Virus record (IMG/VR): IMGVR_UViG_3300036834_000211
Coordinates: 1-64,000 of that record
Source of the DNA: a virus
DNA: 64,000 nucleotides
Direction: 5' to 3' (one strand)
Below, piece by piece: positions 2 to 63,229 of the stretch; within the stretch, counting starts at the first letter, position 1, and each line of letters opens with the position of its first letter. Under the pieces are notes generated by a model, which saw only the letters and a program-made list of their open reading frames with translations, was not told where the DNA came from and did not search any database. Both the position numbers and the translations under genes were made by a program.

Positions 2-2584
2 AACCTGTTCGTCCCCCAGTGGAACGGCCCCACCGGACTGCTGCTGGGCGCCGGTCTACCGGTCAGCTCGACTGGGGCGGCCTCCTCGATCGTCGAGTCC
101 ACGGCGAGCGGCACCATACCCAACTCGCTGATCGCCTTACTCCCCAACGCGAACCTGGCCAACTCGACGATCGGTCTGGTAGTCCCCAGCTGGCTCCAGG
201 TCGGCGGGAGCCCTGCCGCGCTGGGCGGTACGATGACGATCTCCGGGACTAGCCAGACGGCGAATCAGTTCGTCGCTACTCCGAACGGCTCCGCCGGAGC
301 CGTCGCGCTCCGCACCATAGCGCCCGCCGACCTGCCGCTCGGGTCCAGTTCCCAGTTCGGGGCCTTGGAGTGCGGGTCTGGGACGACGTGCACATCGGGC
401 GTGATAACCGTCTCCGGGAGCGGACTGCCGACGGTCAGCAATCAGCAGTTCCTCGGCTACGGGGCGGGATCCGGTAGCGGTACCGCGCAGGCCGTGTCGC
501 TCGCCGCCGGTACCGGCATAACGATCACCTGCTCGGCCCAGACTTGCACCGTCGGTGCGTCGGGCAGCGGGGGCGTATCGGGGCCTGGCTCGTCGGTCAA
601 CAACGACGTCGTGGCGTGGAGCGGCACGGCCGGAGCGGCGCTCAAGGACACCGGCATCCTCTACACGAACCTGGCCACGCTCGCCGGCCCGAACGTGTTT
701 ACCGGGGTCAACACGCTCTCGTCAGGCAACGAGCGAATCCTCGGGACCTCGACCGGCTACACGGCGCTCGCCTCGGCGAATACGACCGCGTCCAACTTCA
801 CGATTACGTTCCCCGCCGCGACGGACACAGTAGACCTGATAGCCGCGGCCCAGGCGCTCAGCAACAAGACGATTAATGGCCTGTCGATCACGGCCAACGG
901 CTCCAATACGCTCAACATCGCCGCCGGCAAGACCCTGACCGACACCTCCGGTGCTGGCCCCGTCCTGCTCCTCGGCGCCACCGGCGGCGGGTTCGCGGGC
1001 TACGCCGGGGCGTCGTGCACGAGCCAGGTCCTCACCGCCATCAGCGCGGCCGGACTCGGCTCGTGCGGGAACGTGGGAACGTCCATGCTCGCGGCCGCGG
1101 CCGTCACCTACGCCAAGATCCAGAACGAGGCCGCGAATACGGTCCTCGGGAATCCGACCGGTACGGCGGCGTCCCCGTCGGAGATCGCGCTCGGGACGAC
1201 CGGCAACTCGACGGTCGTCCTGACCGACAGCAGCGGCAACATGAAGGCTCCGGTCAATACGACGACCGGAGCCTTCAGCGGACCGATCACGTCGACTGCT
1301 GCGACCGGTACTCCTCCCTTCGTCATCGCTAGTACTACGAACGTCCCGAACCTCAACGCCAGCAGCCTCGGGGGGGCCACCTTCGCGTCTCCAGGGCCCA
1401 TCGGCAGTACTGCGTCGAGTACCGGTGCGTTTACCGTGCTGACCGGTACCTCGGGTAGTCTCACGGGGATCACCGCTCTCGGCCTCCGTGATACCTCCGC
1501 GGCGTTCGATGTGACCTTCACCCCGACGTCGTCCGTGGCGCTGACCGCTGCGCGTACTCTGACCTACGATCTGGCTAACGGATCTCGCACGTTCAAGCTC
1601 GGCGCGAACCTCACGGTAGTCACGGACCCCGGAGCAGTAACCGGGGCGCTCAGGAGTAACGGCTCCGGTACGTTCTCCCAGGCCGGCTGCGCCGATCTCT
1701 CCGGCGGCTGCGCCGCGGTGACTACGTCCGACGGGACCCACAGCGTCCCCAACACCACGTCGCTCGCCTTCGGCAACGGCTTCGTCGTCGGGGGCTCGGC
1801 CGGAGCGGCAACAGTCAACGCGACGGTGCCGGACAGCACGAAGACGGCGAGCTACACGGCGACGTCCGCCGACATGAACGGCGCGCTCAACCTGGCGGGG
1901 ACCTCCGGCACGCCGGCCCTGACCCTCCCCGCGCACAGCACTGCGATCCTCGCTCCCGGCATGTCCCTGTCCATCTCCGTCACTGGTACGGTGCCGTGGA
2001 CGATCACGAACTCCAGCGGCCTGACGATGACCGGGCTCAACTCGACGACGCTGCCGCCCGGAACCAACGGATCGCTCGTCGCCAACTCCAACGGCACCGG
2101 TCTGGACTTCTTCGCCGGGGCCCAGCCGCCCACGACGACTGTGATCGGCTCCGTCATGGCGAAGGACTGCTCGACCGGCGGGCAGTTACTCCAGAAGATC
2201 AACACAGACGGGACCGAGACCTGCGCTACCCCCGGCGCCGGCGTCGACTCGGTGGCTACTGGGATCGCCTCGGCGGGTACGACGCAGGCCTCGGCGACGG
2301 TGCTGGCCTCGCAGACGAATCAGGTGACGACGGCAGCCGGGGCCTGCCCGAGCGGCGGACCCTACGCGGCGTGCAACGGCGTGGTCCTCGGCAGTGCGGT
2401 CGCCGTCGGGGACCACCAGGTCGTCTGCAACGACGGGGCCTCGAACGGATTCCTGGCCTATCCGTCTGGAACGGGGACGATCTTCAACGGCGCCGCCGCG
2501 GCCGCGGTCCGCGTCGAGGTTAACTCCTGCAACACGTTTCGAAGGATCACCTCCGGTGCGAATGGGCATTGGGTCGTCTCTTAG
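2..2584 (+). CDS. Tail fibre-like protein, 5'-truncated
   Basis: The frame of ORF 233..2584 is open back to base 2 (NLFVPQWNG...). G/S/T/A-rich with fibre motifs (VTYAKIQN, TITFPAATDT, KTASYT..D...TLP) and 14 Cys in local pairs. Confidence 0.8.
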   Translation, partial: NLFVPQWNGPTGLLLGAGLPVSSTGAASSIVESTASGTIPNSLIALLPNANLANSTIGLVVPSWLQVGGSPAALGGTMTISGTSQTANQFVATPNGSAGAVALRTIAPADLPLGSSSQFGALECGSGTTCTSGVITVSGSGLPTVSNQQFLGYGAGSGSGTAQAVSLAAGTGITITCSAQTCTVGASGSGGVSGPGSSVNNDVVAWSGTAGAALKDTGILYTNLATLAGPNVFTGVNTLSSGNERILGTSTGYTALASANTTASNFTITFPAATDTVDLIAAAQALSNKTINGLSITANGSNTLNIAAGKTLTDTSGAGPVLLLGATGGGFAGYAGASCTSQVLTAISAAGLGSCGNVGTSMLAAAAVTYAKIQNEAANTVLGNPTGTAASPSEIALGTTGNSTVVLTDSSGNMKAPVNTTTGAFSGPITSTAATGTPPFVIASTTNVPNLNASSLGGATFASPGPIGSTASSTGAFTVLTGTSGSLTGITALGLRDTSAAFDVTFTPTSSVALTAARTLTYDLANGSRTFKLGANLTVVTDPGAVTGALRSNGSGTFSQAGCADLSGGCAAVTTSDGTHSVPNTTSLAFGNGFVVGGSAGAATVNATVPDSTKTASYTATSADMNGALNLAGTSGTPALTLPAHSTAILAPGMSLSISVTGTVPWTITNSSGLTMTGLNSTTLPPGTNGSLVANSNGTGLDFFAGAQPPTTTVIGSVMAKDCSTGGQLLQKINTDGTETCATPGAGVDSVATGIASAGTTQASATVLASQTNQVTTAAGACPSGGPYAACNGVVLGSAVAVGDHQVVCNDGASNGFLAYPSGTGTIFNGAAAAAVRVEVNSCNTFRRITSGANGHWVVS

Positions 2585-3623
2585 TTGCCTCGTCCTGGCG
2601 CTCCTCCTCGCCGCCCTCTGCGGTAGTGCGGCTGCGCAGACCGAGGCCCCGCACCCGTTCGTGCCAGGCCACTCGCTGTGCATGGTCAACGGGATCGCGG
2701 ATACGTGCGCGCCGATCTACACCCCGCCGCTCACCTCCAACGCCTACTCGGTCCTGTACACCGGATCCAACTCGAATGGGTTGGGGACCGGCACGGACGA
2801 CTTCCACATCCTGTCGTGCTTCGGGGCCGGCGCCCCGGCGACGTACACGCTCCCGCAGAGCACCTCGACGGTGTTCCCACCGGGCCACGGAGTGGGGATT
2901 AAGAACGCCTGCAACTATCCCCTCACGGTGACGTCGGCCTCGTTCATCTACGGGGCACCGGGAGTGGTAAACGGCAACCCAGCCAGTCTCGGTGGGCAGT
3001 TCGTGCTGTTCCCCGGAGGGGAGGCGTGGCTCCAGGCCGACCCATCTAACCACTACTTGGTGACCGGGTTCGTCCCGGGGACGTGGTACCAGTTCGCCAA
3101 CAACGTACCCCTACTGCGGTGGACCGGCCTCGGCGGGTACCCGGAGTATCGACTCATCTGCTCCGGGCTGATACTCGCGACCTCGGGCGACCACTTCAGT
3201 CTGCAACTCGCCTACGGCGGCACGTTCCAGACGACTGGATACCAGTACGTGAAGACGAGCATACTTCAGACCATAAGTACCGCGGCGGTCTACACTAGTA
3301 GTGGTACCCAGGGGCCGACTGGTACGGGGGATACTGCGATCGTGCTCACGGACTCCATAGACAGCACGACCGCCGCTGCCGACGGCACTACGCTCAACCT
3401 ATTGATTACGACGGCCAACGGTACGGGGGCCGGAAATAAGGTCGTAGTCACCGGCATAGGGAGTTGGAACGCCTCCGGCGGGCCGGCGTACGAGGGTGGT
3501 ACCACACTTAACGCCAGCGGACCGTACTCGACGAGCGCGAACCTGACCGGGATACAGATCATCGACTGGAACAACAGTAGTGCAAACTTTACCGGTATGT
3601 GCCGTCTGGAGCCAGTGACGTGA
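2562..3623 (+). CDS. Signal-peptide-bearing tail fibre-like protein
   Basis: ATG 2562 overlaps the end of the previous gene. MGIGSSLSCLVLALLLAALCGSAAA|Q, a TYTLP beta-sandwich domain and a C-terminal fibre-tip-like domain. Confidence 0.7.
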   Translation: MGIGSSLSCLVLALLLAALCGSAAAQTEAPHPFVPGHSLCMVNGIADTCAPIYTPPLTSNAYSVLYTGSNSNGLGTGTDDFHILSCFGAGAPATYTLPQSTSTVFPPGHGVGIKNACNYPLTVTSASFIYGAPGVVNGNPASLGGQFVLFPGGEAWLQADPSNHYLVTGFVPGTWYQFANNVPLLRWTGLGGYPEYRLICSGLILATSGDHFSLQLAYGGTFQTTGYQYVKTSILQTISTAAVYTSSGTQGPTGTGDTAIVLTDSIDSTTAAADGTTLNLLITTANGTGAGNKVVVTGIGSWNASGGPAYEGGTTLNASGPYSTSANLTGIQIIDWNNSSANFTGMCRLEPVT

Positions 3624-4162
3624 TGCGATTTCTGCTGGCCCTTGCGGCGTGCTTCCTCGCGGGCTCCGCCGCCGAGGCGACGCCCGTCTGCGTCGTCCTG
3701 ACCCCCGACGCGACCGCGGTCAGGGGCGTGGCGACGTGCGACGCAGCGAACGCGGTCTCGATCGATACCTCCGATTCCAGATGGGCCTTGTGGGTCGCAC
3801 AGAACGCCGCACAGAATGCCCAGCAACTCTATCAGAGGAATTATCAGGCGCAGATCACCAAGGGAGTAACGCTGACCTCGACTGGTGCACCAGCCCTCAA
3901 CGCCGTCTACGCTTGCGACCCGGCCACCCAGCAGCAGATCATCGCAGAGGTGACGTCGATCCTGCTGAACGGTACATTCACGGACGGTTCGGCGGCACTC
4001 GACTGGCCTGATGCGGGGTACGCTCTGCACACGTTCTCGGTGGCACAGTTCAAGTCGTTCGCCACTGCAGTCGCATCGTACATCACCACTTTGTCTCCAC
4101 AAATCGTCGGTCCTCCTGGTAATCAGGGCTGGCCGGCTAATCCGGCGATCACCATCCCGTGA
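3623..4162 (+). CDS. DUF4376-like tail fibre chaperone/assembly protein with signal peptide
   Basis: TGATG coupling. MRFLLALAACFLAGSAAEA|T, then YACDPATQQQI..WPD...HTFSVAQFKSFATAVASY. Lies directly after the fibre genes. Confidence 0.6.
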   Translation: MRFLLALAACFLAGSAAEATPVCVVLTPDATAVRGVATCDAANAVSIDTSDSRWALWVAQNAAQNAQQLYQRNYQAQITKGVTLTSTGAPALNAVYACDPATQQQIIAEVTSILLNGTFTDGSAALDWPDAGYALHTFSVAQFKSFATAVASYITTLSPQIVGPPGNQGWPANPAITIP

Positions 4163-4166: not shown

Positions 4167-4643
4167 ATGATGGTCCCCTCGATGATTAGATGGATGCTTC
4201 CATTCCCCCTCTGCCTGCTGCTTGTCTCGGCCTCTCTGGCTCAGACTACGCGGACGACCCACTGGCAACTGGGGCCTGTGACGACGGACATCATCGGCGA
4301 GTCCGCGAAGTTCGCCAACCCGGTCGCCAATACGGACGGCACGATGAGCTTCGACGTCGTCATCACGACGATGCCTCTGCCACCTCCACCATCGGGGTGC
4401 AGCCCCGACGGCACGGTCATCCGCTATCCCACCGCCGCGACCGTCAAGACCAACGTCGGGAAGGACGTCTGGGGCTGGGGAACTGGCAGCAACGCCGTGC
4501 TGCTGAACGGCAGTCAGGCCCGCGGCGGGTTCGCGACGCTCCTGGAGGTCGCCGACGGCTGCAAGTTGTTTTCGCAGAACGCCGGCGTGTGGTACACGTG
4601 GTCGGACACCACCAGCTCGTGGTTCAGCTCGACCGGGCCGTGA
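4167..4643 (+). CDS. Secreted hypothetical protein
   Basis: LCLLLVSASLA|Q signal, a poly-Pro linker and a Trp-rich C-terminal domain. Confidence 0.65.
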   Translation: MMVPSMIRWMLPFPLCLLLVSASLAQTTRTTHWQLGPVTTDIIGESAKFANPVANTDGTMSFDVVITTMPLPPPPSGCSPDGTVIRYPTAATVKTNVGKDVWGWGTGSNAVLLNGSQARGGFATLLEVADGCKLFSQNAGVWYTWSDTTSSWFSSTGP

Positions 4644-6052
4644 GATCACTCCCCGCCATCGTCCTTCTTCTGCTCCTCAGCTTCGCTGCGGAGGCCCGCT
4701 TCTTCGTCCAGATGCAGGGTACCCAGGGGTCTATCCCTCCGGCGACCTTCACCGGTCTGACGATGTCGAATCTATCTTTCACGTCTGGTAGCACCAATCC
4801 GGTAGGCACCGCGAGCGCCGTCGTCAGTAGTGGTTCCAATACCCCGAGCTGGAACTTTAAGACCTCAGGGACTGACTCGGCCACCGGTCTCATCAACTGC
4901 CACGACTATACGGCGTACTTCGCGATCGGCGGTGCTACTGGTGTGGTCACGCCGTCCTCCGGCGCCCCGGTGCAGAGCTATCCTGGTACCTGCGTTCAAG
5001 ATACTCAGGCCGGAGTGAACGGCTCACCCTACTCCGCGGCGTTCACGCTCGTCGGGCAGAGTGGTGTAGCTTATGAACCGGCTGGCTGCGTGCCCGGGAA
5101 CCACGGCCTCGTCCGCGGACGGCCGAGTATTAAGACCATCAACGGCTCTCCCGTGCTCGTCGCGGACGACGGTTGTTTGATCGTTGCGTACGGCGGCTTC
5201 GCCAGCGGATCCGGCTATGAGGGAAGTACCTATTGCAACCCGTGCGAGTACAACCCAGGCGATAGCCTATTCGGTCTTAACGTGCACTGGGCGCAGCAGG
5301 TCCGAGACCTGGGTCACTTCAACGGAATAGGTGTCGGTCAATTCACTATAAACCCGAACGAGGCCCCGTCGACGTGCCAGTTTGGGTTTCCTTACGGGCA
5401 GACACTTGCCCAGAGTGTGACGACCAACCAGGCGCTGCTGAACATCGTGAACCAGACGGGTATGTACCTGATCATCTCGCCGGCCATCTGCAGCGACTGG
5501 CACGGCGGGTCCATTGATCTGGGCTTCATGTCCACGTACTGGCAGACGATGGCGCAGGATTTTGGCGCCTACACCAACGTAATATTTCAGGAGTTCTCCG
5601 AGCCCCAGGGCATGTCCAACTACTCGTGCTCGCTGGACGGCCAAATGAACGACCAGGACTACCAGGTGGTGCGGCAGTACGCATCCAACTCGATGTTCCT
5701 GGCATGGGGCGACTTTAGCTTTGGTAACTTCACTACGTCGTGTGGTACTTGGCCCCAGCTGACGGCCAACGCTACGAGCATAAACTACTCCAACGCGGGG
5801 AGTGCGTTCTCGTCCATCCACACCGAGGGTTCACAGGTGGTCAGCGCCTTCATCCAGCCGGCAGCCTCGATCGGTCAGGCGATGTGGTCGCTTGAGGGGC
5901 CGGAGAGCCCCACCAACTGTGCGTTCCAGGGGGCGGACACCAACCTTCTGGGATACATACAGACACTGATGAACAATAATGTGGGGTGGCAGTGTGACGA
6001 CGGGTGGCCTAACCCATACGGCGCGGTAGTTCCATTCTGGCCCGCGGATTGA
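4640..6052 (+). CDS. Secreted protein: cadherin/Ig-like N-domain plus degenerate GH5-like TIM barrel
   Basis: GTGA overlap. MRSLPAIVLLLLLSFAAEA|RFF signal. YWQTMAQDFGAYTNVIFQEFSEP resembles the GH5 NEP region. Confidence 0.55.
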   Translation: MRSLPAIVLLLLLSFAAEARFFVQMQGTQGSIPPATFTGLTMSNLSFTSGSTNPVGTASAVVSSGSNTPSWNFKTSGTDSATGLINCHDYTAYFAIGGATGVVTPSSGAPVQSYPGTCVQDTQAGVNGSPYSAAFTLVGQSGVAYEPAGCVPGNHGLVRGRPSIKTINGSPVLVADDGCLIVAYGGFASGSGYEGSTYCNPCEYNPGDSLFGLNVHWAQQVRDLGHFNGIGVGQFTINPNEAPSTCQFGFPYGQTLAQSVTTNQALLNIVNQTGMYLIISPAICSDWHGGSIDLGFMSTYWQTMAQDFGAYTNVIFQEFSEPQGMSNYSCSLDGQMNDQDYQVVRQYASNSMFLAWGDFSFGNFTTSCGTWPQLTANATSINYSNAGSAFSSIHTEGSQVVSAFIQPAASIGQAMWSLEGPESPTNCAFQGADTNLLGYIQTLMNNNVGWQCDDGWPNPYGAVVPFWPAD

Positions 6053-6056: not shown

Positions 6057-7553
6057 ATGAGACGATCCATCCTCATCGCTGTTCTATTCCTTCTACTTAG
6101 CTCCGTTGCGAGTGCCCGCTTCTTCGTCCAGATGCAGGGTACCCAGGGAGTGATCCCGCCTCCTCAGTTCACTGCCATCAATTCATCCTGCGGGTCGAGC
6201 TGCACGTTTACCCCAGGTACAGCGGGGTCGATCGGTATCGCAACCGCCGTGGTTAGCAGTGGGCAGTCGAACCCGACCTGGACTCTCGCGTTCGCCGGTT
6301 CCGACGTCAACGGCGTCATCTGCGACACACATTCGACCTACTGGAGCATCAACGGCAGCACGGGACTGTTCAGCAGCACCGCGAGCGCCGTTGCCGGGAC
6401 CTACAACCTATGTAGAACGGCGACACAGGCGGGGGTGGGGGGCTCGCCGTACACGGTGGCCGTGCCGGTCTCCGGGTCTATCCAGGGCATTGCTTGCGCC
6501 ATCGGCCCGAACTACATGGGACCCATCCCCAACCCAGCCGCGGCGATGGGCTACACGACGTGCCTCAACTTCGACTTCACATACACTGGGACGTTCAGCA
6601 ATCGCGTCGCCTTCACGAACGCTAATAACGTAAACGTTCCGGCGAACCAAACATATCAGTGGTCGAATATAGGCTCGTGGCTGAACAATGCTAATACGGG
6701 CATCACCAATGCACTATTGGCTGGCGCCAACGCTACTAACGGTACCGCATTTAGCTCTAGTGCGTACCAGATTGTTCAAGACAATGGGACGCAGGTGCTG
6801 TTGAGTCAGTACATACAGGGTGACGGTGCTCCGCAAATAAATACGCCTCTCTTTCCGCTTACTAATATGTTTCTCGAGGAGGAGGCTAGAGTAGATCCGC
6901 TCGCGTATGCGAACGTGACGTCTGAACTCAACACTGAGATCATTGACGACTTTGGGTTCTTTCGCAATAAGCCGGGCGGTACCGCAGGGGCGGAAATTGA
7001 TGCTGGGTTCAACTGCGGGGTTTCGTCACCATCAGGCTGGGCGAATGCCGGGCAGAGCCAAGCGTGTGGTGGAAACGGTTCGTTTTACTTGACCCCTGCT
7101 GGAGCCTACGTCGGCCAGCCGACCTATCCACCACCTTCTCCCATACTTCTATCGGACGGCAACTACCACACAATGGCCATGCTGTCTGTCGCCAGCCGTA
7201 CTAACAATAGGCAAGCAACTTGCGGTTACTACGATCACCAGTGGGCCGATGGGAGGGGTTTCGGTCCGTGTTGGGCTATGGGTGACGATGTTGGCGGGCA
7301 AGGAACTGCCTGCACGCACACAACAAACAGCGCGATCTGCTGGGAGACGGGGAATGTGTCCATAGGGACTTATGTGACTGGGGCGACGGCAACGACAGGA
7401 AAGCAGTGGATCAGGAGGATAACGATATGGACTTGTGCCGGTTGGAACACGCCGGCTCCGTCCGGCAATGGATACACAGCCGATAATAATTGCGACCCCG
7501 GAAACTTGGTCTTCAATGCCACCGGCGGGAACCAAAGTGGGCCATCATACTGA
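6057..7553 (+). CDS. Secreted protein paralogous at the N-terminus to 4640..6052; C-terminal ConA/GH16-like domain (tentative)
   Basis: Signal peptide followed by the identical RFFVQMQGTQG.IPP motif. EID, YHTMAML and WIRRITIWT segments. Confidence 0.5.
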   Translation: MRRSILIAVLFLLLSSVASARFFVQMQGTQGVIPPPQFTAINSSCGSSCTFTPGTAGSIGIATAVVSSGQSNPTWTLAFAGSDVNGVICDTHSTYWSINGSTGLFSSTASAVAGTYNLCRTATQAGVGGSPYTVAVPVSGSIQGIACAIGPNYMGPIPNPAAAMGYTTCLNFDFTYTGTFSNRVAFTNANNVNVPANQTYQWSNIGSWLNNANTGITNALLAGANATNGTAFSSSAYQIVQDNGTQVLLSQYIQGDGAPQINTPLFPLTNMFLEEEARVDPLAYANVTSELNTEIIDDFGFFRNKPGGTAGAEIDAGFNCGVSSPSGWANAGQSQACGGNGSFYLTPAGAYVGQPTYPPPSPILLSDGNYHTMAMLSVASRTNNRQATCGYYDHQWADGRGFGPCWAMGDDVGGQGTACTHTTNSAICWETGNVSIGTYVTGATATTGKQWIRRITIWTCAGWNTPAPSGNGYTADNNCDPGNLVFNATGGNQSGPSY

Positions 7554-7655
7554 TGTGGATACGTGGACCATGACTGACTGGTATGTGTTCACTTGTGGTG
7601 CATTGTGTGGTGCTGGGCTAATGGGCCTCATCTGGTTTGCTATGGCGCTGGGTTG

Positions 7656-8792
7656 ATGTGGATACGCAACCCTTGGTGGGACGGATGCTGGTTTCTCAGC
7701 GGTTTCCCGCTCGCGTTGGCGCTCGTTCTGGTAGCGGCGTGGAGCGGGCTGCGTTTGCAGAACGTTTTTGCCTTCTTCGCGGTCGTGATGACCTTGGACA
7801 CGATCCACCGGCTCGCGCCGATGTGGACTGCGTGGAGTCACCCCGGTTTCCGGCAGGTCATGGTTCGTAGGCCGATGAAGTACGTCGTGCTTCCGGTCGC
7901 GATCCTCGTGGCTGGTGCCGCGGCCGGTTTCGCGTCTCGGGCATATTGGCCTGCGGATGTGTTCGTGCTCAGCGGACAAACCTACTGGCCTGCCGATCGG
8001 TACATGGCGAGCGGCGGCGTAACGTATGTGCCAAGGACGCTGAGTCTCAACCCGCTCGTCTGGTTGATGGTTCTGCATTACGTGTGGAACATCTGGCATT
8101 TCGCCATGCAGAACTTCGGCGTGATGCAGATCTATCGGAGACTGAGTGAGAGGAAAAGCAATGGACTTTTACGTGAAGCGACTGAGGTACGACCAGGTGT
8201 TCATGGAAAAAACGCCACGCGCGAACGCGCCATCGACAGGGGATTGTTCCTGGGTATCCAAATTGCTATCGGCATTCAGGTGTTGTTTTCGCTGCCGTCA
8301 ACGAACTGGCTGACTAGATACCCTCCGGCAGTGGAGACAAACCACGTCGTCTATGTGCTGCTCGGCATCGCCGCGCTGGCCGCCGTTGTGCGGGAGGCTG
8401 CGGTATCGGGACACTGGTGCAGCCCGCGCATCTTGTTCGCCGCCTCGCAGATGGTAATCATGTTCACGGCTTCGGGTCTGTGGGTGGTGGTGATCTCGAG
8501 CTTCAACCATTGGCTGGTTGCCATAGGTCTGACGGGCCACATCGACGCTAATCGGCGAGGGGGATCTCCGCTGCCAGCCGTCTGCATCGTGGCCGTGCTC
8601 GGAGCGGGGCTGACCGTCCTATTGTTCTTCACGCCCTATCTGCGCGCCAATTTCTTCGCCGCATTGCTTGGGTTTAGCGCTGCGTTGGGGATCGTGCATT
8701 TTCTTTATGACCGCTGGCTCTACAACCTGAGCAATCCCGCAGTGCGCGCCACCATCGGAACGGACCTCTTCGGAGAGGCGCGGAAGACATGA
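7656..8792 (+). CDS. Polytopic membrane protein with conserved His motifs
   Basis: Several hydrophobic helices. DTIHR, HYVWNIWHFAMQNFG, NHWL, HFLYDRWLY. Confidence 0.7.
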   Translation: MWIRNPWWDGCWFLSGFPLALALVLVAAWSGLRLQNVFAFFAVVMTLDTIHRLAPMWTAWSHPGFRQVMVRRPMKYVVLPVAILVAGAAAGFASRAYWPADVFVLSGQTYWPADRYMASGGVTYVPRTLSLNPLVWLMVLHYVWNIWHFAMQNFGVMQIYRRLSERKSNGLLREATEVRPGVHGKNATRERAIDRGLFLGIQIAIGIQVLFSLPSTNWLTRYPPAVETNHVVYVLLGIAALAAVVREAAVSGHWCSPRILFAASQMVIMFTASGLWVVVISSFNHWLVAIGLTGHIDANRRGGSPLPAVCIVAVLGAGLTVLLFFTPYLRANFFAALLGFSAALGIVHFLYDRWLYNLSNPAVRATIGTDLFGEARKT

Positions 8793-8805
8793 CTGAATCG
8801 GCCCA

Positions 8806-8898
8806 CCGGCAGGGGCCTCCGCACTCCTCGCTGGGTCGACCCGCTTCGCCGGGTTGCCCACTTGGGCGGGTCCCTGCCGGACCGCACCCAGCGAGGAG
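8806..8898 (+). promoter_or_regulatory. Candidate structured RNA leader (two interleaved stems) covering the RBS of the glycosyltransferase gene
   Basis: 8806-8817 pairs with 8869-8880 (12 bp, 1 GU). 8824-8836 pairs with 8886-8898 (13 bp perfect, includes GAGGAG). Confidence 0.5.
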
Positions 8899-8905
8899 AT
8901 GAGTC

Positions 8906-10306: not shown

Positions 10307-10331
10307 CAAGACCGGACAAAAAAGATCACAC

Positions 10332-13204: not shown

Positions 13205-13216
13205 CTGAGGAGAACA

Positions 13217-51807: not shown

Positions 51808-52266
51808 ATGGCGTTCAACACGATCACGTCGGCCTCCGCGACGTTCTACCTGACCATCGCCCAGGTCTACCCGCAGGGCGTCAACCTGATCGGATTCGGC
51901 GTGGACGACGCGTTCGTCGCCGAGACGGTAGACGCTGCGGAGACCCGGGTGGGCGTCGACGCGTACGGCGTGATGGGTTACAGACCGCGCGAGGTCCCGA
52001 TGTCGATCCGCTTCCTCGCGGCGTCTCCGTCCATAGTTGTGTTCGAGAACTGGTTAGCGGCCGAGGATCAGCTCAACGACAAGTTGCCGGCAACCGCTAT
52101 AATCACGCAGCCCGCGGTCAACCGCAAGTACGCGTGTGCCTTCGGCGCGCTGATGCGCGTCTCGACCCTGGCTGAGGCACGTCGCGTCTTGCAGGACCGG
52201 GAGTGGCGTATCACGTGGCTGCCCCAGGGGCCCGGCCGGCCGGCGGTCAGCGCGGCGCCGATGTAG
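51808..52266 (+). CDS. Tail tube protein
   Basis: TITSA.A...VYP.GV.L.GF..DDAF..AET..GVD; A.SPS..FENW; follows the sheath. Confidence 0.85.
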   Translation: MAFNTITSASATFYLTIAQVYPQGVNLIGFGVDDAFVAETVDAAETRVGVDAYGVMGYRPREVPMSIRFLAASPSIVVFENWLAAEDQLNDKLPATAIITQPAVNRKYACAFGALMRVSTLAEARRVLQDREWRITWLPQGPGRPAVSAAPM

Positions 52267-55945: not shown

Positions 55946-57190
55946 ATGCGCAGCCGACTCGGTCTCCTCCTCACGATCCTCCTCGTGCTCTCGCCCGCCG
56001 CGGCGAGGGCCCAGACCGCGTGCACGGTTCTCCCCCAGTCGTCCCTGCTCAATCTGTTCTCCGACGCCGCGCCGGTGGCCTCGATCGTCCCTGCCTACGT
56101 GCGCAACGCGATCTGTAGCTCTCTCAATCCGACGAATAATCTCTCGGACGTGGCGTCGCAGCAAACGTCGATAAATAATCTATTCGGACCTAATACTTAT
56201 TTGAAGATCCTGGGTAGTGGGGCATTATCCGTTCCGTCATATACATCATTGTCCACGCAGGGGACTCTGTCGGGAACGCCTGCGGGATCTTCGATTGATG
56301 TCAATTATGGGTCTACGACGCCACTCTCGACCATAGCAGTAATCAGCGATACTGCGACGAATCAGCTGTTGGGAGGAGTAATACCAGCTCTCAGCATAGC
56401 TCACACGTTTGGCGGTACTGGAGCCGGTCCAGGCGCTCGACAGGGGATTTTTGTTGATCTTGTCCAAAATGGAAATGTCGGTTCCGGTACGGGAGCCTTT
56501 CAAACTGGGATCTTTTCGAATGTGTGGGCCAGGAGCGGAACCGGCGGCGGCCAATTCTACGCCTATGCAGGACAAGTAATCGACGACCTAAACGTCTCTC
56601 ACTATGGTACGGTCGGTGGCGAGATCGACTTGGCATTGCACCAGCCTGGGGCTGGGATCAAAGAAGGATGGGCGGTTGCGTCCACCCCGTTGGGGAGCGG
56701 GAACGACACACAGCAAGGTACCAACTATTCGGCCGGCTATGGGCTGTGGGCCGGCGGCTCGTGCGGGAATGGTGCACTCGCCGGGGGGAGCGCCTGCGCC
56801 GGCTTCAACACAGGCATTTCGTTCGGCCGCTCCGATAGTTACTGGCCCATTTCCAACGCCGGTACGGTGATCGCCGCAACGCAAGGGGTCGGCACGATTG
56901 GTAATATGAAGGCGGCGCAGGGCATCGACATGCACAACGTCACCTTCAGCACTTACGCGCTGAATTTCCCTGGATTCCAAGTCACTGGCGACGGCAGCCT
57001 ATTTGCCGGCGGCGCATCGGGTCTCGGCGTGGCTAAGCAGTCGAGTGGTCCGGGTGCTGGACCGGGCGCCGCGGTCGTCAGGATAATTGCATTGCCGGGC
57101 ACAACGGGAGGCACCTGCAAACTGGTGGCCTATGCCGGCACGAGCACCACGGGTGTGCTCTTGGCTGATAACATTGGTAGCGGGTGCTGA
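55946..57190 (+). CDS. Signal-peptide-bearing fibre/spike-like protein
   Basis: MRSRLGLLLTILLVLSPAAARA|Q; LNPTNNLSDVAS fibre motif. Confidence 0.7.
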   Translation: MRSRLGLLLTILLVLSPAAARAQTACTVLPQSSLLNLFSDAAPVASIVPAYVRNAICSSLNPTNNLSDVASQQTSINNLFGPNTYLKILGSGALSVPSYTSLSTQGTLSGTPAGSSIDVNYGSTTPLSTIAVISDTATNQLLGGVIPALSIAHTFGGTGAGPGARQGIFVDLVQNGNVGSGTGAFQTGIFSNVWARSGTGGGQFYAYAGQVIDDLNVSHYGTVGGEIDLALHQPGAGIKEGWAVASTPLGSGNDTQQGTNYSAGYGLWAGGSCGNGALAGGSACAGFNTGISFGRSDSYWPISNAGTVIAATQGVGTIGNMKAAQGIDMHNVTFSTYALNFPGFQVTGDGSLFAGGASGLGVAKQSSGPGAGPGAAVVRIIALPGTTGGTCKLVAYAGTSTTGVLLADNIGSGC

Positions 57191-57194: not shown

Positions 57195-57845
57195 ATGAGC
57201 GGCAGCCCGTGGGGGAGTCAATTTGGTCCCCAGTTCGGGATCGGCATCCGTCCCGGTCCCTCGACGCTGCCGGTGCCTGGTGGGATCCCATACATACCGC
57301 CGCCGGCCGCGCCAAACCTCTCGACCGCCTACTCGATCGTCCCGACGAGCGAGGCGCCGGCCCAGCAGATCACGATAACGCTCGCCGGGCAGGCGTGCCT
57401 GATCAGACTGTACACGAAGAGCACCAACGTGCCGACGATCGACCCGGGGGAGATCCCGACCGACCCCGAGCCGCGCTACGAGAACATCAACCCATGCTTC
57501 GTCGACGTGTATACCGGCAGCGGGGCTAACTTGATCGTGGGCGGGGTCTACGTCCGGCAGGGGACGCTGATCGTGCGCGACGTCTACCTGGGATTCGTCG
57601 GCGACCTCGTGGTCGTCGACACGACAGGCGCGGCCGAGGACCCGCGCGGGGTGCCGGCGAGGCTGCCGCCGACCTACCTGAGGAATCAGACCCAGCTCGC
57701 CGAGTACCCACTGGCCGACGGCGACATGGCCCCACCGGCGGTGGCCGGCCGCATCCCCGGTATGGGGACTCGTTGGATACTGACGTACTGGCCGGTTGGT
57801 TCGTACGTGCCCGGATACTCCTTGCCGCGCTCGGTGGCAGCGTGA
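57195..57845 (+). CDS. Baseplate plug-like protein with extensions
   Basis: VP....P.Q...ITLAGQ.C.I.LY; YLGFVGDL..VDT.G..DP; G.GTRW.L.Y. Confidence 0.7.
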   Translation: MSGSPWGSQFGPQFGIGIRPGPSTLPVPGGIPYIPPPAAPNLSTAYSIVPTSEAPAQQITITLAGQACLIRLYTKSTNVPTIDPGEIPTDPEPRYENINPCFVDVYTGSGANLIVGGVYVRQGTLIVRDVYLGFVGDLVVVDTTGAAEDPRGVPARLPPTYLRNQTQLAEYPLADGDMAPPAVAGRIPGMGTRWILTYWPVGSYVPGYSLPRSVAA

Positions 57846-58792
57846 GCAACGGCACCACTACCCTGCCGGACGTCTCGGTCACCGCCCAGGCTCCCTCGCC
57901 GGTCGTCACGACGCTCCAGGCACCCTACGCGGTCCGGAAGATCGACCTCACGTTCCAGATCGGCACGGGGGACTTCGGTGTGTCCGGAGCGGACCAGCTC
58001 ACCCTCACCGGCCTGCGCGTTTATGCCCACCTAGAGGCCGTCGTGTCTCCCCACATGGCCTCGGTCGCGTTGTTGCGCGTTTATGGTATGTCTCTCGACC
58101 ACATGAACGCCGTCTCGGTGGCTGGATTGCTGTACCAGAGTCGGAAGAACCTGGTCCAGGTCAGGGCAGGAGACGACGCGTCCGGCATGACGACCGTGTT
58201 CGACGGTCTTATCACCGAGGCCTACCCGAAACTCGACGGTGGCGCTGACGATCGTCACTTCTACGTCTACGCGACGCCGGCCACTGCCATCCAGCTCAAG
58301 CCGGTCTCGCCGTCGAGCTACCCCGGCTCGGTGCCAGCGTCCCAGGTCCTCAAGACCCTGGCTCAGTCCGTCGGCTACACCCTCCAGGACAACGGCGTCA
58401 CCGCCGTGCTACAGACTCCCTACCTGCCCGGCACGGTGTGGCAACAGATCCAGGCCGTCGTCGCAGCGGCGGACTGCTTCGCGTTCCTCGACAGCGTCAA
58501 CAAGGTGCTGATCACCTGGTCGAAGAATAGCAAGACGACACCTCCAGTGACGGTGATTGTGGGACCTCAGACCGGCATGATCAATTATCCGATGTTCCAG
58601 AATAAGCAGATCATCGTTCGCACGCTGTTCAGCCCGTCCATGGCCATCTCTCCGGGCACTACCGTGCTCGTGCAGAGTGAACTGAAGGCTGCCAACAATG
58701 CTAAGCTGACCCTCAACATGGTTACCCACGAGCTGGAGTCTCAAGAGCCAGGTGGTCCCTGGGAGACTATCCTGATTGGGTCGCCGCCGTGA
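57842..58792 (+). CDS. Baseplate hub protein
   Basis: RKID.TF, LTGLRV, VYGMSL..MN, AGD...VF.G.I, YLPGT..QQI, TGMI.YP, HELES..PGGPW. Confidence 0.8.
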   Translation: MSNGTTTLPDVSVTAQAPSPVVTTLQAPYAVRKIDLTFQIGTGDFGVSGADQLTLTGLRVYAHLEAVVSPHMASVALLRVYGMSLDHMNAVSVAGLLYQSRKNLVQVRAGDDASGMTTVFDGLITEAYPKLDGGADDRHFYVYATPATAIQLKPVSPSSYPGSVPASQVLKTLAQSVGYTLQDNGVTAVLQTPYLPGTVWQQIQAVVAAADCFAFLDSVNKVLITWSKNSKTTPPVTVIVGPQTGMINYPMFQNKQIIVRTLFSPSMAISPGTTVLVQSELKAANNAKLTLNMVTHELESQEPGGPWETILIGSPP

Positions 58793-59532: not shown

Positions 59533-59534
59533 GC

Positions 59535-59642
59535 GTAGCCTGCCAGCGACTGCGCGTGCACTCCAGCTTGAAGAAAAGGGCGGCCGCTATGCGAGTAGCG
59601 GTCAGTGGTACCATCAGGCTGGACGAGCCTTAGAGACGATTT
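59535..59642 (+). repeat. Dispersed hairpin repeat, copy 4
   Basis: First 25 nt identical to copy 1; last 26 nt identical to copy 2. Confidence 0.85.
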
Positions 59643-59655
59643 CTGAGACATACAC

Positions 59656-60225
59656 ATGAACACCCTCGCCCTTTCCACCCCCGACCAGGACGGCACCGGC
59701 TGGGACCTGGTCGTCGAGAACGGCACCCTCAAGGTGAACTCCGGTGGTATCGCACTCGCACAGGATGTGGCAAGCGCCGTCCGCACGTTCCGAGGTGAGT
59801 GCTGGTACGACTCGACGCTCGGCGTGCCGTACTTCCAGAACATCCTCGGCCTCCGCGTTAGCCTGCAGTTTCTGAAGCAGGCGCTTGTGACGGCTGGGCT
59901 GGTCGTCCCCGACGTGGCCTCGATCAAGTGCTTCCTGACCGGGCCGGGCTCGGGCCGAGAGATCGGTGGTCAGCTCCAGATCACCAGCTCGAGTGGGCAG
60001 GTCTCGGTGGTCGAGACCGGAAACCTGCTCGGCGTCGCGCCGTGGTGGGTGAGTGCGGTCTCGGGAGACATTGCCGCAACTCCTCCGATGGCCGGTGGAA
60101 GCGACTTCGGACCGCCGGACTTCGGACCGCCGGACTTCGTCCAAGGTGATGCTACTGCAACTCAGACTGTACTCACCGGAGGCGGGGTCCCACTTACGGG
60201 AGGGGGTAAGGTATTGACACAATGA
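59656..60225 (+). CDS. Baseplate wedge/sheath initiator (gp25-like) with C-terminal extension
   Basis: WDLV, AQDVASAVRTFRGECWYD..GVPYF; DFGPP repeats. Confidence 0.8.
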   Translation: MNTLALSTPDQDGTGWDLVVENGTLKVNSGGIALAQDVASAVRTFRGECWYDSTLGVPYFQNILGLRVSLQFLKQALVTAGLVVPDVASIKCFLTGPGSGREIGGQLQITSSSGQVSVVETGNLLGVAPWWVSAVSGDIAATPPMAGGSDFGPPDFGPPDFVQGDATATQTVLTGGGVPLTGGGKVLTQ

Positions 60226-61937
60226 GGATCATCCTGCGCATCCTCGCCGCGTTCCTGGGTGCCGTCGCGGCTAGTCACTTGGCCCACTCGCAGCAGCAGG
60301 AGATAGAGGCGTACGTGTACGGCCAGTCCCAGGCGACTCAGCCGTACTCATCGGGTCTACTCATCCCGGCAATCCCCAACCCCAATCGATTCTCCCTGCT
60401 CAGCATTCCGGCGAATGCCTTCCTGTACACCAGTGGCGTGCCCAACGCTCCCTTCCTGAGCGGATCTGGTGGCGGCTTCCAGGGATTAACGGGATCTGCG
60501 GCGACGGCCCTACTCTCCCCCTGTACCTCGACGGTCCAAGGGGTCGTCCCCACCCCGCCGAACGATGCCACCAAGTTCCTAAATGGGAAGTGCTCGTTCG
60601 CTTCCTCCGGCTCCGTAAGTCCGGACGTCATGGGCGCCCCGCACAACGGGACGTCCGACGACTCGTCAGGCTTCAGCGCAGCGCTGGCGACCGGTATTCC
60701 GGTTCAGATGGTGTGCAACGGTACTCCCTACAAGCTGACGAGTAACGTCATCATAGCCACCCCGGCGCACCTGATGGGCTGCGGGACGATCCTGGGGTCC
60801 CCGATCAATCTATCCGGTGCGTCCGCGGGAATAACCATAACGTCGAGCGGAGTGATCGTCGAGAACGTCCACGAGGTCGGCGATCGCACTACTGGGCAAG
60901 TCGGCATAAAACTGACCGGCGGCAGCCGAGACCTCGTCCGCAATGTCCAAGTCGAGTTGGCCGACATCTGCTTCCAGCAGGGCGTGGGGGCCGGAGTAAT
61001 CAACAACTGGGAGCACATCTATGGCAGGAACTGCAAGAGCATCTTCGCGACCTTCCAGGACGGTATAGGACCGATCATCGACGAGGCACTTTACGACACC
61101 GACGTGGGCTCATACGCGGATCCCCAGGGTATAGTAGTCGAGACGGAGGGTGTATTCATGACCAGGGCCGACATCCTGGACACCACGTACCCGCTCATAA
61201 TACAGTGCAACGGGGCTCACCACGCGAACGGTCCGATATGGGGGGAGTACGGGCTCAACTTCTTCGACATCTCACAGCAAGGGGTCTTGATCACCAACCA
61301 GTCCGGTGGGGGATGTTCCGTGAGGGGAGAGCACTTCCACGGGACGTGGTTTGCCACCTCCACGAACAATGGTCTGACTGTCACTACCGACTCGCTGAGC
61401 AGCATCCAGACCGTGCTGTGCGACGGGTGCCAGATTCACAATAATGGGGCCCATGGCGTCAGTCTATCGGGTAACTCCAACGACATCATCTTCAACGGCT
61501 CCATAATCTCCGGGAACGGGAGCGCGAGCGGCAGCGCCTACGACAACGTCAAGATAGCCACCACCGCCCCGCTGGACACCATCGTGTTCAACGGTGGTAT
61601 AATTGGTAGGGCGGAGGGCGAGACCGCGCTTCCCAAGTACAACTTGGAGATAACGACTCCGTCGTACGTCCGGATAACCGGGACGTACTTCGATGTGGGT
61701 GGGGTGACAACCGCGAACATCGTGAACCCCGGAGGTGCCAACATACAGACGGACGGTCTCTCCGGATTCGAGACTACGGCATCGACGCTCGGTCCCTGCA
61801 CAACTGGCAACGCCGGGAACAGGACGTCGATATCCGACGCGACGTCGGGGACGTTCGGAGCCCCCGTGGGAAGTGGGGGCTCCCACCACGTACTGGCATA
61901 CTGCGACGTATCGGTATCTGGTTGGGTAGTCCATTAG
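60222..61937 (+). CDS. Signal-peptide-bearing tailspike-like beta-helix protein
   Basis: MRIILRILAAFLGAVAASHLAHS|Q; GAPHNGTSDDS..F.AAL; beta-helix repeats. Confidence 0.72.
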   Translation: MRIILRILAAFLGAVAASHLAHSQQQEIEAYVYGQSQATQPYSSGLLIPAIPNPNRFSLLSIPANAFLYTSGVPNAPFLSGSGGGFQGLTGSAATALLSPCTSTVQGVVPTPPNDATKFLNGKCSFASSGSVSPDVMGAPHNGTSDDSSGFSAALATGIPVQMVCNGTPYKLTSNVIIATPAHLMGCGTILGSPINLSGASAGITITSSGVIVENVHEVGDRTTGQVGIKLTGGSRDLVRNVQVELADICFQQGVGAGVINNWEHIYGRNCKSIFATFQDGIGPIIDEALYDTDVGSYADPQGIVVETEGVFMTRADILDTTYPLIIQCNGAHHANGPIWGEYGLNFFDISQQGVLITNQSGGGCSVRGEHFHGTWFATSTNNGLTVTTDSLSSIQTVLCDGCQIHNNGAHGVSLSGNSNDIIFNGSIISGNGSASGSAYDNVKIATTAPLDTIVFNGGIIGRAEGETALPKYNLEITTPSYVRITGTYFDVGGVTTANIVNPGGANIQTDGLSGFETTASTLGPCTTGNAGNRTSISDATSGTFGAPVGSGGSHHVLAYCDVSVSGWVVH

Positions 61938-61948
61938 TCGTGGCTTTC

Positions 61949-63229
61949 ATGGTTAGACTCCTCAAGTACTTCTGCACCATTGTCGTACTCGCCACTGCCA
62001 CACAGGTGCAGGCTCAGACTATTAAGACGCAGTCGGCGCTGATAACCGAGTGGCAGCCCTGCTCTGTGCTCGGTCAGCCAAGCGCGTGCCACGGCAGCTC
62101 GACGCAGATTCAGGACATCATTCAGTCGGTGGCTCCCTGGGCGTGGACGCTCAGTCCGAGCGGGCCGATCCCGTCGGCTCTGCTCTCCCCCTGCACTACG
62201 ACGGTCCAGGGGGCCGTACCAGCGCCGCCGAACGATGCCACCAAGTACCTCAACGGACAGTGTCAGTGGTCGGGGTTGGCGATTGAAGCTCCTAACTACA
62301 CGAATCCGTCTGGAGGATTGAATGGAGGATTTCGGGTTGAAAATATCGCTACTCTAGCACCGAGTAACCCTGGGGTAAACAATGCGATTAGCATCTCGGC
62401 GTTCATCGATAATCTGAATGGCCGTGGGTCGGGGGGTACATTGGCAAACCCTCAGCTCATCGAAGCGATAAATCCGCTCTGCAATCAGTTCGCTGTCGCC
62501 CAAGGAGGGTCGGTATCGGACGTACAGTGCGTCGAGAGTGATGTACTTCAGAGCTTCGCGCCAACTAATGTCGATGAGCCGTTCAATGCGAACTCTCCGA
62601 CAGTTTTTGCCTACTCGGCGACCGCCGAACGCAATACTACAGGAGCGACGCCACAGCGGCCAAATGGCGCCTACATGGTGGTATCGGCCAACACTGCGAA
62701 CACCAACGATTGGTTTGCTTATGGACTTGTCCTCAGCCGAGTACAATATGAAGGGATTAGGATCGAGGATTTCCCACTCGACACGCTCCACGGCTTCACT
62801 CATGCAGCCATCTCCGATTATAGCAACTCTGCGCGAGTGCTGAATATTAAGGGCACGCACGCGACTGCCATTGTCGACATGAGTGGGGAGGTTGGCATAC
62901 CAAATTTCATCCTAGGACCCTCTAGCGTAAGTGCGAATTTCGTGGTGGCGAATAGCGCAAATTTTAACACCGAGTGGAGTGTGGACTCCGGTGGTACCGC
63001 CGCGGAGTTCTCAATAATGGGATGGCGCGACCGCGGCGCAGAAGAGTATCAAATACTGAAGAACGCGTCCAACAACTTGCAATTTGTCGACTTTGTCCAC
63101 ACTGTGACGTTTATGAATTATGTACAATCGACGCAAGTATTGGAGATATCCCACATCCCCACCTCGTGCTCCGGACACCCGTCTGGGACTGAGTGGAATA
63201 ATGCTGGAGTGGTGAATATCTGTCCATGA
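61949..63229 (+). CDS. Signal-peptide-bearing fibre/spike-like protein
   Basis: MVRLLKYFCTIVVLATATQVQA|Q; segment shared with the 60222 protein; C-terminal PTSCSG..SGT.WNNAGV. Confidence 0.7.
   Translation: MVRLLKYFCTIVVLATATQVQAQTIKTQSALITEWQPCSVLGQPSACHGSSTQIQDIIQSVAPWAWTLSPSGPIPSALLSPCTTTVQGAVPAPPNDATKYLNGQCQWSGLAIEAPNYTNPSGGLNGGFRVENIATLAPSNPGVNNAISISAFIDNLNGRGSGGTLANPQLIEAINPLCNQFAVAQGGSVSDVQCVESDVLQSFAPTNVDEPFNANSPTVFAYSATAERNTTGATPQRPNGAYMVVSANTANTNDWFAYGLVLSRVQYEGIRIEDFPLDTLHGFTHAAISDYSNSARVLNIKGTHATAIVDMSGEVGIPNFILGPSSVSANFVVANSANFNTEWSVDSGGTAAEFSIMGWRDRGAEEYQILKNASNNLQFVDFVHTVTFMNYVQSTQVLEISHIPTSCSGHPSGTEWNNAGVVNICP

Follow-up and report, generated by a model that had tools for sequence, protein, structure and literature searches.

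Tailed phages are generally held to build all of their parts in the host cytoplasm, and exported phage proteins are usually regarded as a few lysis or exclusion factors. Here we describe a set of genes that does not fit this picture. They lie in the first 64 kb (positions 1 to 64,000, referred to below as the window) of the virus record IMGVR_UViG_3300036834_000211, a single record of 114,541 bp with a G+C content of about 63% that was assembled from a soil metagenome. The source is an uncultured soil myovirus, and the window is its structural half; the plus strand holds every real gene in it, and all coordinates below refer to that strand. Among the head, neck, tail, and baseplate genes of the window, 17 genes begin with a signal-peptide-like sequence, and an 18th is split by the ends of the contig. 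A preliminary description had proposed that the 17 proteins are exported, mature in the periplasm, and join the particle during or after lysis. Our results confirm and strengthen the observation and support the export half of the proposal, while the joining of the particle is unproven and is less likely for this phage.

The signal genes

Genes are named below by their first position, and a slash marks the predicted signal peptidase I site. The largest group lies ahead of the terminase region. Its first member appears in the window as the 3' part of a gene (2 to 2584; 14 cysteines in this part), and the 5' part is found at the other end of the record (113722 to 114541), with a signal ending in PMAHS/DP. 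The last and the first open reading frame (ORF) of the contig share a repeat (67% identity over 159 amino acids [aa]) without an exact overlap. Since the last ORF bears a signal and has this repeat in common with the 5'-open first ORF, we take the two to be one long fibre-like gene that the ends of the contig interrupt. A circularly permuted or terminally redundant genome, with the assembly broken inside the repeat, is the probable explanation. The next gene (2562 to 3623) encodes a protein of 353 aa without family match (AAA/Q, six mature cysteines), for which a GTG at 2556 is the likelier start (MRMG..., with AAGGA at -14). It is followed by a 179-aa signal protein with a DUF4376 domain (3623 to 4162; PF14301, E = 1.7e-5), which is a paralogue of a leaderless gene beyond the window (66589 to 67125; 45% identity over 95 aa, E = 3e-25), and by a 158-aa protein with two cysteines and two candidate sites, SLA/Q or VSA/S (4167 to 4643). 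The last two genes of the block encode proteins of 470 aa with 12 cysteines (4640 to 6052) and 498 aa with 14 cysteines (6057 to 7553). The former has a borderline match to part of a GH5 cellulase-like domain (PF00150, 24.0 bits against a cut-off of 23.5), and the latter is its N-terminal paralogue, with about 120 N-terminal residues in common (44% identity over 123 aa).

Between the portal and MuF genes lie a gene for a pectate-lyase-like beta-helix protein of 857 aa (21325 to 23898; PF12708, E = 4e-10, 40.2 bits against a cut-off of 27) and one for a small protein of 82 aa (23906 to 24154; AGA/Q, two cysteines), the stop of which overlaps the start of MuF. Further on, a 102-aa protein with a CVNH (cyanovirin-type lectin) domain (27942 to 28250; AHA/Q, four cysteines; PF08881, E = 1.2e-6, 29.7 bits against a cut-off of 24.5) is followed by a 72-aa protein (28247 to 28465; ARA/V) with a cysteine-free mature part. 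This is a 50-residue peptide rich in histidine, arginine, glutamate, and tryptophan with repeats of the HRW or HEH type, and it is perhaps metal binding.

An insertion of 5.7 kb that separates the neck gene 41385 from gene 47950 begins with a gene for a 269-aa signal protein (42199 to 43008; ADA/A, four cysteines) and continues with a coiled-coil-like protein of 170 aa (43008 to 43520; AHA/Q, four cysteines) and a protein of 295 aa with four cysteines and a C-terminal domain at aa 201 to 293 (43517 to 44404). The signal peptide of the latter (43517 to 43630) contains small tandem repeats, LLCS three times and then AWSI twice, and its hydrophobic core looks as if it had grown by slippage. A fibre-like protein of 319 aa (44404 to 45363; ALA/Q, six cysteines) and a 590-aa protein with 18 cysteines and either a signal or a signal anchor (45360 to 47132) follow; a right-handed beta-helix with an Ig-like domain is a lead only for the latter.

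The remaining three genes lie in the baseplate region. A 414-aa protein (55946 to 57190; ARA/Q, six cysteines) is encoded between the conserved genes 55254 and 57195, and two proteins are encoded between the wedge genes 59656 and 63226: one of 571 aa with beta-helix-like repeats (60222 to 61937; AHS/Q, 12 cysteines) and one of 426 aa (61949 to 63229; VQA/Q, eight cysteines), with a stop codon that overlaps the start of wedge gene 63226. These two have a 38-aa N-proximal module in common (66% identity). All-against-all BLAST of the signal proteins revealed only such pairwise modules, and a search of 5.8 billion proteins found, within the limits of the search tool, no homologue of 60222.

Signal-type N-termini

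All 17 ORFs show N-termini of the Sec and signal peptidase I type, with a short and usually basic n-region, an uncharged hydrophobic core of 10 to 18 residues (mostly 10 to 15), and small residues at positions -3 and -1. The A-x-A motif that had been noticed at most of the cleavage sites is present in 12 to 13 of the 17, and glutamine occupies position +1 in 9 to 10. By eye, neither a lipobox (L-x-[GAS]-C) at the site nor a twin-arginine motif (RR-x-F-L) was found on any of these N-termini. For counting, signals were called by our own von Heijne-type rule, which asks, within the first 40 or so residues, for a basic n-region and an uncharged hydrophobic core of about 7 to 18 residues, with small residues at -3 and -1. 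At the starts first proposed, the rule flags 16 of the 17; in the remaining one, 21325, the signal is at aa 45 to 62, preceded by a basic extension, and becomes canonical when the gene is read from the ATG at 21424, where the homology to a signal protein of a relative begins.

A permissive search that allowed any start flagged 17/64 genes in the window compared to 108/1,598 ORFs in 82 related loci (Fisher p = 2e-6), so that the frequency of signals in the window is far above chance. The conserved core ORFs of the relatives were flagged in 6/530 cases, which corresponds to a false-positive rate of about 1% for the rule. None of the core capsid, sheath, tube, and baseplate proteins was convincingly flagged, in line with the preliminary description, and apart from the signal start of the split gene at 113722, the other 50 kb of the genome yielded no more than a few weak rule matches.

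Such N-termini could also be uncleaved inner-membrane anchors, for example of assembly platforms, or artefacts of wrongly assigned starts. The long hydrophobic cores and ambiguous cleavage sites of 45360 and 43517 would fit anchors, and the internal position of the 21325 signal at its first proposed start would fit a misassigned start, as would the fact that the starts were chosen by eye, several of them at places without a clear Shine-Dalgarno sequence. However, most of the cores are only 10 to 15 residues long and are followed by A-x-A, homologues that were called independently begin with the same kind of signal, and the false positives of the rule are too few to account for the set. The cysteine content described below is hard to explain without an oxidizing compartment, both in the window and in the homologues, and because of it we regard anchors or start artefacts as highly unlikely.

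Cysteines and conservation of the signals

The mature signal proteins contain 2.04% cysteine compared to 0.85% in the other proteins of the window (Mann-Whitney p = 5e-5), and the number of cysteines is even in 15 of the 17 (binomial p = 0.001) compared to 13 of 30 others. The capsid protein, the tape-measure protein, and several neck proteins have no cysteine at all.

Signals were conserved in homologues in all four families that we tested, namely, those of 55946, 44404, the C-terminal domain of 43517, and the N-terminus of 21325. An exhaustive HMMER search gave 154 relatives of 55946, of which 115 are at least 150 aa long; 76 of these 115 were flagged, about eight more have a signal behind a miscalled start, and the cysteine count is even in 73 of the 76. 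In the 44404 family, 11 of 14 relatives have signals, and all 11 have an even number of cysteines. The C-terminal domain of 43517 is homologous to 169-aa signal proteins with eight cysteines at the same neck site in two of two relatives, and aa 31 to 110 of 21325 match a signal protein of a relative of about 100 kb. The 55946 family was not found in 401 sampled Acidobacteriota genomes, an empty result that, from such a sample, shows nothing.

Taken together, the signals, their conservation, and the cysteine pattern make it very probable that the proteins are exported through Sec, cleaved by signal peptidase I, and folded with disulfides in the periplasm.

Within these families, leaderless and leader-bearing forms appear to differ. 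The leaderless relatives of the 55946 C-terminal module contain little cysteine and have N-termini of the virion-fibre kind, which are missing from the leader-bearing ones. The module itself, about 55 aa at the C-terminus of 55946 (57025 to 57190) ending in G-S-G-C, also forms the extreme C-terminus of more than 100 metagenomic proteins that are otherwise unlike each other; they measure 53 to 750 aa and are in part leader-bearing and in part leaderless. The coexistence, judged from sequence, of leaderless, cysteine-poor forms and leader-bearing, even-cysteine forms within one family is an addition made by this case. The DUF4376 genes extend this picture, as the phage appears to have retained a cytoplasmic and a periplasmic copy. 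What appears to be new here is the presence of a leaderless pair of fibre and DUF4376 genes, of leader-bearing fibre-like genes, and of a leader-bearing DUF4376 paralogue within one genome.

Genomic context and relatives

The window was compared by local tblastn with 82 related IMG/VR loci (capsid identity, 45 to 58%) and with a relative of 100,397 bp from an Elusimicrobia metagenome-assembled genome (MAG) bin (capsid identity, 69%; sheath, 59%; terminase, 59%). The best of the 1,291 metagenomic capsid homologues at E <= 1e-30 are 91 to 69% identical; the nearest full relative compared is the one at 69% identity of the major capsid protein, and relatives at 91 to 75% lie outside the comparison. 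Phages in GenBank are distant, with capsid identities of at most 45%, and megablast of 20 kb against them gave no match. Two related contigs bear MAG labels (Elusimicrobia and Acidobacteriota), which were rejected as indicators of the host since the bins consist of phage contigs.

In the relatives, the core genes are conserved and syntenic and the signal genes of the window are absent. These occupy six sites, one block of six genes (including the split one) ahead of the terminase region and five insertions: between portal and MuF (two genes), after gene 27400 (two), between the neck and gene 47950 (five and one leaderless gene), between 55254 and 57195 (one), and between the wedge genes (two). 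At four junctions (portal and MuF; 41385, 47950, and sheath; 55254 and 57195; wedge 59656 and wedge 63226), the flanking core genes are adjacent in relatives. The gap to the upstream stop is between -23 and +11 nucleotides for all 17 genes, which bears out the translational coupling proposed earlier, and several downstream core genes overlap the stops of signal genes. With such gaps, the signal genes must be cotranscribed late and do not look like autonomous morons: like morons, they are absent from relatives at the site, but they have no space for promoters or terminators of their own and do not deviate significantly in composition.

This placement raises the possibility that some or all of the proteins are fibres or spikes of the head, neck, or baseplate that are exported, oxidized, and trimerized in the periplasm and that join particles built in the cytoplasm when the holin opens the inner membrane or after release. 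The genes do stand beside portal, neck, and baseplate genes with translational coupling on both sides, and the N-proximal modules common to 60222 and 61949 (38 aa) and to 4640 and 6057 (120 aa) are what alternative receptor-binding proteins on one docking site would have. In addition, relatives repeatedly carry signal genes at the same neck site. However, no signal gene is conserved at its junction: we found no homologue of a signal gene at the same junction, and no particle-docking N-terminal domain in common with the fibres of relatives, in the 82 loci or the 100-kb relative. Moreover, 18 different appendages over six sites exceed what any known baseplate or neck docks. We therefore consider docking unlikely for this phage. 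The narrower version in which at least 55946, 60222, 61949, and the 42199-to-47132 cluster are appendages, trimerized in the periplasm with the exported DUF4376 protein as chaperone and docked at lysis, is in our view rather doubtful.

The signal genes at the neck site of the relatives are different from, and unrelated to, those of the window. They occur in at least 16 loci, and some encode cysteine-rich proteins of 937 to 1,035 aa. In loci L010, L035, L047, L054, L058, L067, L069, L072, and L075, a signal protein of 170 to 370 aa is encoded between the homologues of Neck1 and 41385, about 2 to 4 kb after the capsid gene, and a second signal protein of 110 to 135 aa is found after the 41385 homologue in related loci. 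BLAST of these neck-site proteins against the genes of the window gave no homology. By analogy with the position of the P2 lysis cassette, the neck-site proteins might be spanins, a possibility that size and cysteine content rule out for the large ones. The head-tail junction is a conserved hot spot for exported proteins in the relatives. The 100-kb relative has two signal genes after its fibre, and the habit of carrying signal genes belongs to a wide group and not to this genome alone.

The leaderless virion proteins

Scans with PHROG and Pfam recognized the structural module of a contractile-tailed phage. In the window, it comprises the small terminase (14863 to 15846), the large terminase (16191 to 17834), the portal (19346 to 21328), a MuF-like head morphogenesis protein (24151 to 26058), a NUDIX-prohead protease fusion (29940 to 32915), a DUF2184-type major capsid protein (35654 to 36769), Neck1 or tail completion protein (40670 to 41167), the sheath (49130 to 51172), a tube-like protein (51808 to 52266), a lytic tail or tape-measure-like protein (53530 to 55257), the baseplate hub (57773 to 58792), and two wedge subunits (59656 to 60225 and 63226 to 64662). 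Beyond the window, a canonical leaderless tail fibre follows (65885 to 66586; phrog_12796, E = 6.6e-28; PF21882, a Gp53-like C-terminal domain), which matches the fibre of the 100-kb relative in an alignment made by eye. The leaderless DUF4376 gene mentioned above (66589 to 67125) comes directly after it and, judged from this position, is presumed to encode the fibre assembly factor. A virion set that already includes a canonical fibre and a chaperone-like gene, all leaderless, is a further argument against docked signal proteins.

After this pair, the genome encodes a leaderless beta-helix protein of 320 aa with seven cysteines and an uncertain start (67071 to 68033), with weak matches to tail-spike and Beta_helix families.

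Fibre, spike, and lectin character

About a dozen of the signal genes had been described as having tail fibre or tailspike motifs. This number was overstated, and about eight are supportable: 21325, 45360, and 60222 as beta-helix proteins; 44404, 55946, 61949, and the split end gene as fibre-like; and 4640 and 6057 as weakly GH5-like. Matches above the family cut-offs are limited to 21325 (pectate-lyase-like), 27942 (CVNH), and 3623 (DUF4376), with the GH5 match of 4640 at the border. The beta-helix and Ig-like lead for 45360 comes from Atlas feature and structure neighbours, all below 0.9 or with a TM score below 0.5. For 44404, the nearest Atlas clusters are exclusively viral, and Mtd_N and phage fibre C-terminal domains among its structural neighbours are a lead only; a leaderless relative of 44404 adjoins the fibre gene of a marine T7-like phage. 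The remaining signal genes are small or gave no match in Pfam, PHROG, and NCBIfam scans. NCBIfam gave no match for the ten signal proteins searched and hence no C-terminal domain of the type IX secretion system or other sorting domain.

Structure prediction for a trimeric fibre fold was carried out for 55946. The AlphaFold2 monomer was mediocre (pLDDT 66), and no PDB entry was matched significantly by Foldseek; streptococcal phage hyaluronidase fibres, which ranked highest at E of about 1.4, are a lead only. With three copies of aa 95 to 414, the model was a heavily intertwined homotrimer with an ipSAE of 0.93 compared to 0.00 for the best control, a partner pLDDT of at least 87, and at least 88% of the contacts common to the runs. 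In calibration, the ipSAE mark was reached by 20 of 30 solved same-chain pairs and by 1 of 23 single chains, counts that are rough for this case, which used our own alignment and three copies. The C-terminal module of 55946 forms part of the modelled trimer interface.

That about eight of the proteins can be supported as fibres or spikes would suit docked appendages, as would the finding that signal-bearing homologues of 55946 lie in the structural regions of unrelated, short-tailed-like phage contigs. On the other hand, several signal proteins are small or, in one case, a lectin and not a fibre, and the leader-bearing members lack the virion-fibre N-termini of their leaderless family members.

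Function of the exported proteins

The explanation we prefer, and which we would rate at about even, is that the signal proteins are late accessory proteins made from receptor-binding modules, which bind or cut glycans of the envelope and matrix and are released at lysis without being obligatory parts of the particle. We favour it because the leaderless virion set is complete, because relatives lack the signal genes at these junctions, and because they form a large and scattered set that includes a lectin and small proteins. The different starts of leaderless and leader-bearing family members point the same way. It corresponds to the alternative of secreted adhesins or depolymerases that had been offered beside the proposal of periplasm-matured particle parts. 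Of that proposal, export is upheld by the signals, the cysteine enrichment and parity, the four families, and the DUF4376 paralogue, while the joining of the particle is made less likely by the leaderless set with its canonical fibre, the absence from the junctions of relatives, and the N-termini of the leader-bearing forms. The glycan targets and the absence of the proteins from the particle are what we infer from these observations.

According to this explanation, on top of a complete leaderless virion set, the phage would carry at least 18 late genes for proteins routed through the Sec translocon of the host. Cotranscription and translational coupling with head, neck, and baseplate genes would lead to late synthesis in quantity, the signal peptide would direct the proteins to the periplasm and be removed by signal peptidase I, and the oxidizing machinery of the host would form the disulfides. 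The proteins could then fold into trimeric fibres, beta-helix enzymes, a CVNH lectin, and GH5-like enzymes, possibly aided by the leader-bearing paralogue of the presumed fibre chaperone. The infected cell's envelope and matrix glycans would be their ligands or substrates, and after lysis they would act on the soil matrix and on cell debris. The likely benefits would be to clear a path for the progeny, to destroy or mask receptors so that neither progeny nor rivals adsorb to the dying cell, or to glue cells and matrix together.

Several points weigh against this explanation. Only two enzyme domains exceed the Pfam cut-offs (PF12708 in 21325 and PF00150 in 4640), and since no known domain is recognizable in most of the 18 proteins, any target is a guess. 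Export and cleavage, like the disulfides, are deduced from sequence, with signals called by our own rule. The gaps leave no room for promoters or terminators (no scan for either was made), unlike in classical autonomous morons, and the G+C content at third codon positions (0.767 in signal genes and 0.790 in core genes) does not differ significantly (p = 0.11). Downstream core genes (MuF and wedge 63226) are coupled to signal genes, and particle-docked appendages would be expected to be encoded, as here, beside the genes of the portal, neck, and baseplate and to have a module in common such as the N-proximal one of 60222 and 61949. Finally, leader-bearing proteins at the fibre position of Cellulophaga phages are annotated as virion proteins from tandem mass spectrometry (MS/MS).

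A special case of the accessory explanation is receptor interference, in which receptor-binding modules turned inward bind or cut the phage's own or its competitors' receptors in the envelope of the infected cell. There are precedents in the blocking of receptors by T5 Llp and lambdoid Cor and in the receptor interference caused by retroviral Env. The modules that the signal proteins have in common with leaderless virion fibres, their lectin and glycanase domains, and the late and abundant coexpression with virion genes that the coupling suggests would all fit. However, exclusion genes are usually early or lysogenic, few, and small, while here there are 18 late genes, many of them large. We think it improbable that this is what the proteins do, and equally improbable that superinfection exclusion and the sparing of progeny that would otherwise be wasted on debris, which such interference would give, are their benefit.

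Relation to known systems

Single small exported envelope proteins with signals are known from phages: lambda Lom and Bor and T5 Llp are encoded in or beside tail gene regions and are absent from close relatives. In contrast to the present case, with 18 genes that are coupled to late genes and many of which are large or fibre-like, they occur singly, often with their own promoter, and are expressed from the prophage or early.

The closest likeness was found in Cellulophaga phages. In phi10:1, gp091 to gp094 are annotated as structural proteins by experimental MS/MS proteomics (GenBank KC821618.1), and in phi46:3, gp079 to gp082 are annotated as structural by similarity to proteins of a related phage (GenBank KC821622.1). 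We checked the sequences of these records and found signal-like N-termini in all of gp091 to gp094 of phi10:1 and in gp079 to gp083 of phi46:3. As in the window, these phages have tightly packed runs of fibre- or pectate-lyase-type late genes with Sec-type signals beside tail genes. They differ in their Bacteroidota hosts, low G+C content, and few cysteines and belong to other phage families; no sequence homology to the window proteins was seen, with no homology test made. The annotation of these leader-bearing proteins as structural speaks for docking. Against this, it comes from phages of hosts in another phylum and without mapping of N-termini; the records contain no discussion of the signals and no mature N-termini. 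In addition, the Cellulophaga leader genes occupy the canonical fibre position, whereas the phage described here keeps a leaderless fibre and has its leader genes spread over six sites.

The mosaic adhesive trimer (MAT) fibres of Bdellovibrio bacteriovorus, about 21 phage-tail-fibre-like trimers with a signal peptide and, in some, disulfides, are extracytoplasmic adhesins (Caulton et al. 2024, PMC10769870). By analogy, they show that an export route for fibre-like trimers is feasible. They are encoded by chromosomal genes of a predator and not by phage late genes, and they have a conserved domain of about 130 aa, rich in beta structure, after the signal and, in many, an S74 chaperone-protease, neither of which was found here in the Pfam scans (no direct alignment to MAT proteins was made).

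Phages of Porphyromonas gingivalis have genes without assigned function whose Sec signals leave glutamine exposed at +1, which was read as an adaptation to host secretion, with the products as possible envelope modifiers (Matrishin et al. 2023, PMC10367356). Glutamine at +1 is the likeness to the window; the differences are that those are five small unknown genes in temperate phages and that fibres or spikes are not mentioned. The Bacteroidota O-glycosylation sequon D-[ST]-[AILVMT] is not enriched in the signal proteins (13 observed and 15.7 expected), and its density is as in nonsignal proteins. Soil phages with glycan-degrading enzymes were also the subject of a study of phage and prophage carbohydrate-active enzymes (CAZymes), in which SignalP found signal peptides on 5% of prophage CAZymes (PMC13507307). 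That study concerned metabolic genes outside structural modules, with structural ones excluded, while here a quarter of the late-operon genes bear signals and most are not recognizable CAZymes. In the literature, we found no description of tailed-phage fibres that are exported through Sec, which is no proof that none exists.

Implications

In this phage, a quarter of the late-operon genes appear to be addressed to the Sec pathway, and their products are built from receptor-binding fibre and spike modules with the cysteine signature of an oxidizing compartment. If they are accessory proteins, soil phages would release a large, unrecognized set of stable, disulfide-bonded proteins that bind or cut glycans, with a bearing on matrix turnover, host range, and receptor masking. 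If they dock, part of the host recognition gear would be assembled outside the cytoplasm, by an undescribed two-compartment assembly route in soil and marine tailed phages, and the leader-bearing proteins listed by MS/MS in Cellulophaga phages would be the same phenomenon. Either would be new biology and could be tested in cultured Cellulophaga phages. There is also a consequence for annotation, as such genes are now labelled "tail fibre" or "hypothetical" and host range may be wrongly predicted where they are taken for particle components.

Neighbouring genes

Four further features of the structural half deserve mention. The NUDIX-prohead protease fusion is a 991-aa protein with a NUDIX hydrolase domain at aa 565 to 686 and the prohead protease at aa 796 to 978, an arrangement that is also seen, in pieces, in relatives. 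A 99-aa protein encoded between capsid and neck (38640 to 38939), which is not among the 17 of the preliminary description, begins with a single membrane helix; RR and a coiled-coil-like tail come next, and the protein may be a holin or a membrane anchor. Upstream of the small terminase, the product of gene 13201 (13201 to 14301) has the helical domain of 5-hmdU DNA kinases (PF18723, E = 2e-41), which marks thymidine hypermodification. Finally, a 466-aa protein (8906 to 10306) consists of a glycosyltransferase-like N-terminal half (weak GT2/GT7C matches) fused to a Sulfotransfer_4 domain (E = 4.7e-32), with a 399-aa protein with about seven hydrophobic segments encoded upstream (7593 to 8792) and an S8 subtilase-like protein encoded downstream (10332 to 11390; E = 6e-9). 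The genes from 7593 to 11390 may form a set for glycan or protein modification beside the block of signal genes.

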